A stretch of 32,000 nt of DNA, taken from contig JBDHVY010000001.1 in NCBI GenBank assembly GCA_039809905.1, forward strand, positions 1,170,001 through 1,202,000. Direction: 5' to 3'. Position 1 is the first letter of the stretch; each line of letters begins with the position of its first letter. The notes beneath the pieces were generated by a model. It was not told where the DNA came from. It saw only the letters and a list, made by a program, of their open reading frames with translations, and made no database searches. Position numbers and translations under genes: made by a program. Shown here in pieces: positions 23,842 through 25,399 of the stretch. The stretch is from Candidatus Babelota bacterium. GTDB taxonomy: Bacteria > Babelota > Babeliae > Babelales > Vermiphilaceae.

Positions 23842-23956
23842 CGTCTATCCTTTTGGTTGTGTGTTAAAATGCTTTCTATTGCTATTTTCATGAGTAAAAT
23901 CTTCGTTTTTTCGCTCATGCCCTCATGAAATGATCCTTTTTCAAGGCTCTTTTTAT

Positions 23957-23984
23957 AGGATATCAAAAAAAAGTACCTTGTCAA
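23957..23984 (-). promoter_or_regulatory. Candidate dnaK promoter
   Basis: The minus strand reads TTGACA - 16 nt - TATCCT, about 110 nt upstream of the dnaK ATG. Called from sequence pattern only. Confidence 0.35.
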
Positions 23985-24127
23985 CGGAAAACTCAAAAAA
24001 TCTTAGTGTGGTCCGCTAAGGTTTCTTGAGAAGGGGAACTTGATGCCTTCATTGAAAGGGACGATTTTTTGTGTTGTTTAGGCGATAAGAAGAGGTTGTT
24101 CAGTCTTGCCAACTTAATTGTACTTAA

Positions 24128-24400
24128 TTGCTTTGCCGTTCGATCGGCTTTTGCAGGGCTTTTTGCTTATACTTGTCGGATAATTGCTTGATGGGCTCAG
24201 GCGGAGTTCTGACTTCGCTAAAGCTATGTCGGACACGACGTCGTACTTGCGGCGGGTTTTTAGATGATTCTAGGTATTTATTTGTGCGGAGTCCTGCCCT
24301 TGCGTCAAAATTCGCGCCCCCCGCACTCCGCTCCTCGCCCCCACCGCCTTTCTCTGGGGAATTAATGGAGGCGGGAGGGCTCAGGACTCCGTTAAAAAGA
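24128..24400. other. G+C-rich, highly self-complementary non-coding island (possible structured RNA or element remnant)
   Basis: There is a sharp compositional jump relative to the flanks. A perfect 10-bp long-range pairing joins cggagtcctg (24287-24296) and caggactccg (24382-24391), and 4 more bp follow after a 2-nt bulge. A nested 6-bp pairing joins ccgcct (24344-24349) and aggcgg (24369-24374). gcggagttctg (24201-24211) is a near-duplicate of gcggagtcctg (24286-24296). There is a 10-bp palindrome acgacgtcgt (24235-24244). The only ORF is Arg/Pro/Ser-rich and not protein-like. Confidence 0.45.
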
Positions 24401-25050
24401 TTAAGAGTAAGAAAAGATTAAGGAGAAAGAAAGGATAAGGATTAAGAATAAGATATAAGGTATAGAGAGAGCAGGGGTACATTATATATATACAAGTGTA
24501 TATATATAAGCGTATAGGAATATATAGGAGTATATAGGAATAGGAGAGTAGAGATATGCGTATGTGGTATATATAAACCAAGAGCAAAGATTAAAAATAA
24601 AGAACTAAGATAAAAAAAGAGATTGAGAATAAAGACTAAGAATAAGAATTAAAGAAGAAAGATATTAAAAAGAGATTAAAAGGAACACATATATATAGAA
24701 TAGATAAAAAGAATAAGGATAAGGAATAAAGATAAGAATAAAGAAGAAAAGAATAAAGGTATATATGTGAAGTTAAGAACATATATATGAAAAAAGTAAA
24801 AAGAAAGAAAGTAGGTAATAAGAATACATATATATATAAGTGTATATAAGAATAGAAGAACTATATAACTATACGGGTATTAGGCATATACATATATATG
24901 AGTAAAGAATAAGGAAAAGAATAATAAGAACAAGAAGAATAGCCAAAATAGTTTCACTGCGAAGCTTGTTGCTTAAAGGGGGTATGGGTATGCGTAAGAG
25001 TATAAGAAGGATTGAAACATATATACGTCTAAAGTATAGGGAGCATATAA
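24393..25050 (+). repeat. Cytosine-depleted polypurine low-complexity tract interspersed with (TA)n blocks
   Basis: The plus strand is almost all A/G/T. By hand I count about 22 C in 24393-24950. Degenerate AAGAATAAGGATAAG-like units alternate with ACATATATATA blocks. A ~17-nt repeat TATAYAAGTGTATATA occurs at about 24488-24506 and 24834-24848. All plus-strand frames are stop-rich. Confidence 0.8.
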
Positions 25051-25399
25051 GAACAATTACCAATCGGACGTCAGCAGGGTACGCGCGCGTGCTGGCCAAA
25101 CCAATTCACGTCTTTTCGATTTAAAATCAAACAATTTTCCATTATTATCATCAAAAAATTCCTTAATTAAAGTTTTTTATTCGTTTTTGAAAAACACCTG
25201 GCAATTCTTCTTTTTAAGATTCCTTAAAAGGGATACAGCGGCCCCCGCGTGTTTTTGCGATAGCTATTTTTGAGTCATTACCTCTACCTTTGATTGACAA
25301 GCAAAACTTCTTTTTGAATTAATAATTATTGAATTAAAGCAGAAAGATGGTAATTTTATAATATAGAAGAAAAAATTTTTTTGTCTCTTAGGGGTTTTA

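Follow-up and report, generated by a model that had tools for sequence, protein, structure and literature searches.

A conserved cytosine-poor element divergent from dnaK in Dependentiae, a candidate long non-coding RNA locus

A long gap without genes beside dnaK

In a 32,000-nt stretch of the genome of a Candidatus Babelota bacterium (GenBank assembly GCA_039809905.1, contig JBDHVY010000001.1, positions 1,170,001 to 1,202,000; hereafter, the window), dnaK (21949-23841, minus strand, 630 aa, HSP70 in Pfam at E 1e-255) is separated from the next plus-strand open reading frame (ORF), which starts at 25400, by a gap of 1558 nt (23842-25399). All other spacers between listed ORFs are 368 nt or shorter, the runner-up being 20449-20817 (368 nt), and the description of an interval of about 1560 bp free of any credible ORF, given in the original prediction from the letters of the window, is thus borne out. 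The gap holds an element (~24167-25256) that is real, conserved, and unusual and that belongs to no RNA family described in Rfam 15; most likely it is a long RNA gene not described before, or else a few RNA genes in a cluster. We consider, with modest confidence, that it is a lineage-specific non-coding RNA locus of the Dependentiae, transcribed from the plus strand, divergently from dnaK, and ending in a hairpin and U-run at 25236-25256.

Neither protein-coding genes nor RNA genes of known type were detected in the gap. The element contains no long ORFs; the longest ORF in the gap, 97 aa from a TTG start (24128-24421), lies over GC-rich hairpins and has no match in Pfam, and open stretches occur on the minus strand of the cytosine-poor tract described below because that strand is without G. 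ARAGORN found no tRNA or tmRNA in the window region, Rfam 15 at gathering score gave no match across the window, and at an E-value threshold the segment 23700-25500 gave only chance-level matches (E of at least 0.9). A survey of the literature on Dependentiae non-coding RNA and dnaK intergenic regions found nothing relevant. Little is known of the Dependentiae, a phylum of intracellular parasites most of which are uncultured; because their genomes are small, 1 to 1.5 kb of conserved non-coding DNA would be costly and is presumably functional. The switch in gene orientation that had been claimed for the gap holds on its right side, where the five genes are all on the plus strand; the left side is mixed, with plus-strand genes at 18664 and 19625.

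The features of the gap are as follows (positions in the window; relatives are denoted by locus numbers such as L003).

23842-23984, minus strand: 5′ untranslated region (UTR) and promoter of dnaK, TTGACA-16-(TG)n-TATCCT at 23984-23957; the left border, outside the element.
24002-24020, no strand assigned: HspR-operator (HAIR)-like palindrome CTTAGT-N7-GCTAAG, read from the sequence, between the dnaK promoter and the element.
24021-24166, plus strand: variable spacer, aligning with only 2 of 16 relatives and holding a hairpin, GCCG-UUCGAU-CGGC, with UUUU (24135-24152).
24167-24184, plus strand: 5′ motif TTATACTT-GTCGGATAAT, a probable promoter (-10-like GATAAT) or 5′ boundary.
24185-24282, plus strand: largely window-restricted insert, aligning with only 2 of 16 compared relatives.
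24286-24331, plus strand: helix P1, GCGGAGU (24286-24292) pairing with ACUCCGC (24325-24331), only 7 bp in the window.
24333-24350 (5′ strand) and 24367-24385 (3′ strand), plus strand: helix P2, a GC-rich hairpin matched by covariance model R1 over 24321-24399 (63.8 bits, E 1e-13).
24385-24399, plus strand: conserved GACUCCGUUAAAAAG, with the second copy of the invariant heptamer ACUYCGU, identified from invariant alignment columns.
24394-24950, plus strand: low-complexity tract 1, low in cytosine and high in purines, carrying (UA)n blocks and repeats of the UAAGA type.
24951-24998, plus strand: middle motif GUUUCACUGCGAAGCUUGUUGCUUAAAGGGGGUAUGGGUAUGCGUAAG, conserved in 10 loci.
24999-25058, plus strand: second low-complexity stretch, short here and much longer in L003, L005, and L088.
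25059-25127, plus strand: two boxes ACCAAT-N3-ACGTC (25059-25072 and 25100-25112) and then UUUUCGAUUUAAAAU.
25120-25148, plus strand: promoter-like TTTAAA-17-TATTAT, a consensus match only; a possible internal start of a short 3′ RNA.
25177-25197, plus strand: UUAUUCGUUUUUGAAAAACAC, conserved across relatives.
25220-25256, plus strand: 3′ motif UUCCUUAAAAGGGAUACA, hairpin CAGCGG-CCC-CCGCGUG, and U-run; a likely intrinsic terminator and 3′ end.
25257-25399, plus strand: promoter and 5′ UTR of the next gene, placed outside the element by the drop in conservation and the differing downstream genes.

Conservation, covarying helices, and cytosine depletion

A DnaK-based scan of species-representative genomes recovered Candidatus Babeliales/Dependentiae metagenome-assembled genomes (MAGs) at 72-91% DnaK identity, with other phyla all at 67% or below, and a metagenome scan added ~20 relatives at 67-94% identity. 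About 25 Dependentiae (TM6/Babeliales-like) genomes and metagenome contigs share this architecture upstream of dnaK, the ordered motif set being present in L002-L005, L007, and L082-L105 (DnaK identities of 68-94%). In two closed chromosomes the locus lies at ~978.1-979.2 kb (OY969806.1) and ~465.5-466.9 kb (OY969561.1). The region upstream of dnaK is long and non-coding in nearly all Dependentiae loci, and the features keep a constant order on the strand opposite dnaK. The 5′ part runs from the dnaK promoter through the HspR-operator-like palindrome, a variable spacer, TTAT..GTCG(G/C)ATAAT, and P1 to P2, which is bracketed by two copies of ACUYCGU; the 3′ part continues with the cytosine-poor tract, the ~45-nt middle motif (..CUACGAAGUUUGUUGCUUAAAAGGG..), sometimes a second tract, two ACCAAT-N3-ACG boxes, UUAUUCGUUUUUGAAAAUCAC, (U)UCCUUAAAAGGGAAGG, and the hairpin with its U-run. 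Conservation falls off past about 25260, and beyond the terminator sequences diverge and the next gene varies among lineages.

Model R1, built from nine well-aligned sequences before all were realigned, gave exactly one match per Dependentiae locus, at a constant place and orientation, with no match in seven non-Dependentiae loci and no second copy in 430 kb. The element is syntenic and single-copy, and the P2 model is a handy marker of the clade.

Two helices of the 5′ domain covary. Across 20 loci, 94.8% of P2 cells were paired, compared with 77.5% when shuffled and 50-68% when slid; 11 of the 14 pairs had changed on both sides, and double-change cells numbered 40 where 9.6 were expected. 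Quite divergent P2 stems stand at the same position (CCACCCACC/GGUGGGUGG, CCCAAUCGCC/GGCGAUUGGG, and CUCCCGCACCC/GGGUGCGGGAG). With MAFFT alignments as such, RNAalifold predicted no structure for the P2 region, since bulges put the columns out of register. P1 consists of an invariant ACGGAGU/ACUCCGU core lengthened by lineage-specific complementary sequence, and the insert that it encloses is variable, measuring 56-64 nt in 11 of 14 loci, 29 nt in the window, and much less in L095 and L096. Tested with its two strands joined by a linker, P1 had 87.2% of cells paired across 14 loci, compared with 76.9% shuffled and 34-50% slid, and both partners had changed in 8 of 14 pairs, the paired percentage being inflated by the selection of 5′ strands for best complementarity. 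Both helices exceed the shuffled and slid controls, the kind of compensatory change by which structured non-coding RNAs are recognized.

The strongest anomaly of the gap, which the original prediction passed over, is the depletion of cytosine between 24395 and 25060 (51% A, 21% G, 22.5% T, and 5.1% C, with a GC skew of up to +0.9). The lowest C fraction of any 300-nt interval in the 32 kb, 0.03, is at 24512 (mean of 0.157, sd of 0.03). Other short C-poor stretches in the window, such as 18494-18763, were considered and proved to be ordinary AT-rich promoter regions. In 17 loci the tract measures about 200-660 nt (~560 nt in the window, ~200 nt in L082), with A at 0.30-0.59, C at 0.03-0.11, G at 0.16-0.40, and purines at 63-83%; C is 3-6% in 16 of these loci and 11% in L088. 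In general the tract runs at about 50% A, 22% G, 23% U, and 5% C and abounds in UAAGA and UAUAUA. Across 316 kb from Dependentiae, only the element has C-poor runs of 300 nt or more, and these lie without exception on the strand opposite dnaK.

This composition persists through nearly complete change of sequence. The repeat units vary among lineages, and the tract cannot be aligned with that of relatives at 93-94% DnaK identity, in which the flanking motifs align well; blastn mapping of conservation is uninformative within it because low-complexity sequence matches itself. UAAGA and AUAAG are ~4.5-fold enriched and AUAUA is overrepresented in all 17 loci, AAGGAU is ~5-fold enriched in pooled tracts and overrepresented in 13 of 17 loci, and successive AAG triplets show a spacing peak at 6-8 nt. 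The tract hardly folds (minimum free energy of -50.9 kcal/mol over 551 nt, or -0.09 kcal/mol per nt), pairing only between (UA)n blocks; such (TA)n blocks had been reported for the gap and are indeed there. That the sequence turns over fully while composition and strand stay the same points to composition as the target of selection.

Short-read assemblies break within the tract: L001 (Logan contig SRR27308745_539170) begins at the equivalent of window position ~24783, and L004 ends in it. Because of such breaks the element will often be missing or truncated in MAGs, beside a universal marker gene, dnaK.

At the right end, the hairpin of 25236-25256 is GC-rich and followed immediately by UUUUU, as in intrinsic terminators; its stem is short, so the terminator scan did not call it in the window. 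It includes the gcgg-ccc-ccgc hairpin with gtgttttt pointed out previously, which we find at 25238-25256. Of 18 loci examined at the homologous position by a crude scan, 10 have a hairpin and U-run on the plus strand and 1 has them on the minus strand; the scan tool also called a terminator in L093. Across relatives the CCUUAAAAGGGAAGG motif precedes this hairpin and U-run on the plus strand. We also asked whether the 3′ motif mimics the 3′ strand of P2, and rejected the idea since the two show no correlated variation.

A candidate RNA and the alternatives

The suggestion, one of several in the original prediction, that the gap encodes a large structured or low-complexity RNA is supported, at the level of sequence comparison, by the roughly 25 relatives, the two covarying helices, the 3′ hairpin and U-run on the plus strand, and the constrained tract. 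A single RNA of ~1.1 kb is the leading model, though not an established one. Several observations favor transcription of the plus strand: in the three most distant relatives the 5′ domain is 10-15 kcal/mol more stable when folded from that strand, the inner pairs of P2 alternate between U-A and U-G, the tract is an extreme form of the excess of A over T on sense strands of this genome, and the 3′ hairpin and U-run are oriented accordingly. In L103 the terminator is followed by what appears by eye, not by promoter scan, to be a promoter of the next gene, carD (TTGGCA-17-TAGAAT); because carD appears to have its own promoter past the terminator, the element is probably a separate unit.

We propose that such an RNA would begin with a 5′ domain in which P1 closes the variable insert and the GC-rich P2 is flanked by two ACUCCGU copies, continue as a long, essentially unstructured, C-depleted and purine-rich core with fast-evolving UAAGA/AAGGAU-type repeats and self-pairing (UA)n blocks between them, and close with the conserved 3′ domain. 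The core could serve as a multivalent single-stranded platform binding many copies of one protein, given AAG triplets 6-8 nt apart and dozens of UAAGA/AAGGAU-type sites. Lack of cytosine would preclude G-C pairs and keep the core single-stranded, and it would also make the transcript a poor substrate for Rho, so that a long (~1-kb) untranslated RNA could be completed; we suggest this escape because a C-depleted core is the opposite of a C-rich, G-poor Rho-utilization (rut) site. The structured 5′ and 3′ domains would stabilize the RNA and define its ends. If it is an RNA, the element would join the few large non-coding RNAs known from bacteria as an unusual type, conserved over most of its length only in base composition and strand, a pattern not known for bacterial RNAs, and it would offer a natural test case for cytosine depletion as a means by which long untranslated transcripts escape Rho.

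A number of points weigh against this interpretation. As to strand, the base pairs of the helices give no clear preference: the G-U and A-C cells of P2 number 4 and 5 once the two innermost pairs are set aside, and P1 read on the plus strand has 1 G-U against 3 C-A. In close relatives, neither P2 nor the 5′ domain as a whole folds preferentially on one strand. The middle motif is complementary to the post-P2 heptamer, and the strand preference of this duplex differs among loci, favoring the plus strand in four and the minus strand in six. P1 is not evident in L091-L099, although ACUCCGU is invariant there, and the selection bias in its pairing percentage has been mentioned. At the 5′ end, P1 pairing starts 0-6 nt past the -10-like GATAAT, which is awkward if the hexamer is a promoter, the promoter scan of the window finds no canonical sigma-70 promoter before P1, and in the window a terminator-like hairpin (24239-24261) falls between the 5′ motif and P1. 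Promoter-like sites in the 3′ part would permit several short transcripts in place of one long one. As to a sponge function, GGA is not enriched in the window tract (13 occurrences, with ~15 expected from base frequencies), and there is no specific protein candidate.

Some of these points fit a composite regulatory region, a reading that we regard as unlikely but worth setting out, in which the 5′ motif would be a promoter or an insertion hot spot, the ACCAAT boxes transcription-factor sites, the tract a DNA spacer or structural element, and the only transcripts one or two short RNAs (~50-130 nt) ending at 25236-25256. Promoter-like sites are indeed called past box 2 in the window (25120-25148) and at equivalent places in L003 and L084, another promoter-like sequence, TTGAAA(A)nCAC-17/18-TAnnAT, lies just before CCUUAAAAGGGAAGG, and the boxes stand at activator-like distances upstream of promoter-like sites; the 5′ motif, moreover, is doubled around inserted DNA in L003, L004, L084, and L085. 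Such matches, however, occur at or below chance frequency in the scans, and the covariation of P1 and P2 requires that a transcript (or single-stranded DNA) span both. No terminator lies between P2 and the tract, and a depletion of C that stays on one strand through deep divergence is not readily explained if the tract acts as duplex DNA.

Alternatively, the functional strand could be the minus strand, with the tract acting as a Rho-dependent terminator or insulator, or as a minus-strand RNA, that halts leftward transcription before the dnaK promoter and operator. Read on that strand, the tract is a G-poor, C-containing, pyrimidine-rich RNA (CUUAUUCUUAUC...) of ~21% C and 5% G, the classic composition of rut sites, which are C-rich and G-poor (PMC9160355, PMC6144790); it has the C-rich, G-poor, unstructured stretch of ~80 nt or more expected of such a site, its function as one being a prediction. 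In the six loci with the heptamer ACUCCGU, the minus strand gives the more stable post-P2/middle-motif duplex, and the three plus-strand C-A mismatches of P1 would become G-U. We nonetheless find this reading rather improbable, since no leftward transcription units lie to the right of the element in the window or most relatives, promoter scans find no conserved minus-strand promoter, and the hairpin and U-run at the right end are oriented for termination on the plus strand. Distant relatives also fold much better on the plus strand, and the conserved motifs and two covarying helices far exceed what a rut site needs.

A neutral minisatellite, or the remnant of a decayed mobile element or pseudogene, would account for the hypervariable tract of short imperfect tandem repeats and for the breakage of short-read assemblies inside it (L001 and L004). 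We consider this very unlikely. Position and orientation are the same in about 25 lineages, with conserved flanking motifs and covarying helices; turnover under fixed composition and strand likewise argues against neutral repeats or a decayed insertion. The locus contains no trace of a transposase or integrase and no family-matching ORF, a second copy was not found, and the viral contig collection was without the element (no match in two exact-pattern scans). The proposal that the gap is the scar of a degraded inserted element thus finds no support in a single-copy, syntenic element kept down to 68% DnaK identity.

We give virtually no credence to the remaining idea, raised in the original prediction, that the gap is a chromosomal replication origin, with the AT-rich (TA)n tract for unwinding and the repeated boxes as initiator sites, and a false origin candidate is thereby removed. 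The element does resemble oriC in being long AT-rich non-coding DNA with repeated boxes (ACCAAT-N3-ACG, 2-3 copies) where genes diverge. On local sequence, namely the 32-kb window and the flanks of five relatives, there is however no switch in the sign of GC skew: plus-strand skew is +0.063 left and +0.084 right of the gap and positive throughout the window, and the two sides of the element agree in sign in L002, L003, L005, L006, and L007 (8-12 kb of flank on each side). The AT-skew change at the gap tracks gene orientation. As for an unwinding element, (TA)n blocks exist in the gap, though scattered across 600 nt of the strand-asymmetric tract. As had been noted previously, good DnaA boxes are lacking: allowing at most one mismatch, and with a plain consensus in place of a lineage-specific matrix, TTATCCACA has no occurrence in 23842-25399, the closest being at 18148, and its 9 occurrences across the window are at chance level (10.3 expected). 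Nor did a Pfam scan of the larger window ORFs (28 of the 38 listed) detect dnaA or dnaN. An origin, finally, would need neither strand-specific C depletion nor covarying GC-rich hairpins.

Comparison with known systems and the flanks of the element

By analogy, the RNA proposed here would work most like a CsrB-type sponge RNA or a target of repeat-binding ring proteins, while being a member of neither group. Like CsrB, RsmY, and RsmZ, it would repeat a short purine-rich motif many times and end in a Rho-independent terminator, with variable copy number and fast turnover of repeats, and its AAGGAU, enriched only in pooled tracts, resembles the core of CsrA sites. CsrB-type RNAs, however, are 100-370 nt long with normal C content and display GGA in hairpin loops, the hairpins being short and numerous, whereas the core of the element is 200-650 nt, nearly C-free, and unpaired, with UAAGA rather than GGA as its commonest motif. 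No GGA-in-loop hairpin array of this kind is present, the Csr/Rsm models of Rfam do not match the element, and Pfam scans of the larger ORFs found no CsrA or RsmA in the 32-kb window.

Ring proteins recognize short repeats in RNA, TRAP binding (G/U)AG repeats, HutP UAG repeats, and the distal face of Hfq (ARN)n, their sites in mRNA leaders comprising 3-11 repeats in 20-60 nt. The element is similar in offering short purine triplets at few-nucleotide spacing in unstructured RNA, with AAG at 6-8 nt and AAGAAU fitting (ARN)n. It differs in having 40-60 repeats at a stand-alone locus, loose periodicity, units that differ among relatives, and no locus-linked candidate protein.

Human Satellite III (GGAAU)n and Drosophila hsr-omega are purine-rich simple-repeat transcripts, linked to heat shock, that sequester RNA-binding proteins. 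The element may be likened to them in being purine-rich and divergent from dnaK with an HspR-operator-like palindrome between, but they belong to another domain of life, there is no homology, and heat-shock control of the element is an analogy only. A bolder proposal, speculative and in our view doubtful, is that the element represents a new class of bacterial long non-coding RNA selected on composition: a kilobase-scale, near C-free, Rho-proof, structure-free repeat RNA with small structured ends, coregulated with dnaK by a shared HspR-like operator and serving as a multivalent sink or condensate scaffold for an RNA-binding protein, the counterpart of Satellite III (GGAAU)n in an obligate intracellular protist parasite.

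OLE, GOLLD, and ROOL are long (over 500 nt), lineage-restricted bacterial non-coding RNAs with covarying helices that were found by comparative genomics (PMC12286853), and the element shares their length, lineage restriction, and covarying helices. These RNAs are densely structured over their full length and conserved in sequence, whereas only ~150 nt at the 5′ end of the element are demonstrably structured and its core is unalignable, at about -0.09 kcal/mol per nt. With rut sites (PMC9160355, PMC6144790) the element has in common a long unstructured tract of strong C/G asymmetry, but its plus strand is the inverse (G far above C); only the minus strand is rut-like, and no transcription unit is evident on it.

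On the dnaK side, promoters equivalent to that of the window were called in L003, L084, and L090, with the general form TTGACA-16-TGnTAT(C/T)CT. The palindrome lies just upstream of the -35 hexamer, and relatives such as L004 carry TTTAGT-N7-ACTCAAG, which may be compared with the HAIR consensus of HspR, CTTGAGT-N7-ACTCAAG (PMC6102357). This suggests HspR-type heat-shock control in Dependentiae, and the position of the element, divergent from dnaK with the palindrome between, suggests a link of the element to heat shock; no HspR/MerR-family ORF was detected in the window.

The sequence GTCG(G/C)ATAAT occupies the equivalent place in nearly all relatives and is doubled in L003, L004, L084, and L085; in L093 the promoter scan calls the 5′ motif as TTAACG-18-GATAAT, and a GATAAT- or TATAAT-type hexamer also stands upstream of a small inserted ORF in L083 and L085. 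Readings of the 5′ motif as a dif/Xer site, a sigma-28 promoter, or a DnaA box do not fit, and long-range pairing between it and the ACCAAT boxes, examined by eye, was discarded, the G/C variant of the motif and the boxes showing no covariation. The 18-nt motif CTATGTATGTCGGATAAT occurs twice in several relatives, and the window has one intact copy (24167-24184) and one degenerate copy (24224-24236). The copies flank a small ORF and terminator in L004 (about 333-1055) and ~100 nt of structured sequence in L003 (9627-9737) and L084; in L085 both intact copies follow the ORF, and in L083 the first copy survives only in degenerate form. The doubling may reflect duplication of a promoter or a hot spot for site-specific insertion.

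The largely window-restricted insert (24185-24282) contains a mini-hairpin (24200-24218), the degenerate copy of the 5′ motif, and the terminator-like hairpin and U-run of 24239-24261. In the mini-hairpin, GGCGGAGU-UCUG-ACUUCGC, a heptamer like the P1 5′ strand is fused directly to one like the post-P2 heptamer, showing that the two are able to pair through a G-U pair; it looks as if it were a copy of the 5′ domain minus all in between. GC-rich inserts of ~100 nt also occur in the dnaK 5′ UTR or near the element in L005 (~9830-9960), L004 (~1300-1400), and L096, which has two copies (~205-300 and ~1105-1200 upstream of dnaK); they share strings such as ...cctccgaagc...ggcgaaggatg... and resemble small repeated palindromic mobile elements.

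Toward the 3′ end, the pair of ACCAAT boxes is spaced by 38-41 nt in most relatives, with three copies in L006. L006 (9400-9520) and L098, at 73-74% DnaK identity, are without the C-poor tract and retain GAGTCGCATAAT; an extended box, AACCAAT(N3-4)ACGTCATC, stands in two tandem copies in L098 and three in L006 and looks like a protein-binding array.

Right of the element, the window carries two hypothetical genes (25400-27815, 318 aa and 435 aa, both Pfam-negative) and then CarD at 28105. In L103 (region 2291-2977) the gene downstream of the element is 39% identical to this CarD (E 2e-33) and is followed, in translation read by eye, by a miaA-like gene, the same order as in the window; L105 (2216-2821) likewise reads by eye as carD-miaA. 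Because carD-miaA comes straight after the element in the distant relative L103 (and, by eye, L105), the sequence comparison indicates that dnaK <- element -> carD is the ancestral arrangement and that the window acquired the two hypothetical genes between element and carD. The site past the terminator is a variable point of gene insertion, and other relatives carry ankyrin-type and membrane proteins there.

The window as a whole encodes ankyrin-repeat proteins, a mitochondrial-carrier protein, and many ORFs without a family match, a gene content in keeping with the Dependentiae. Four successive paralogues of glycoside hydrolase family 1, beside a family 3 hydrolase, lie at 2183-8890 (minus strand) and 57-1157, a tandem expansion that is striking in an intracellular bacterium with a small genome. 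The eukaryote-type mitochondrial carrier domain (1249-2109, minus strand; Mito_carr, E 7e-9) is consistent with the host-derived transporters of intracellular parasites.

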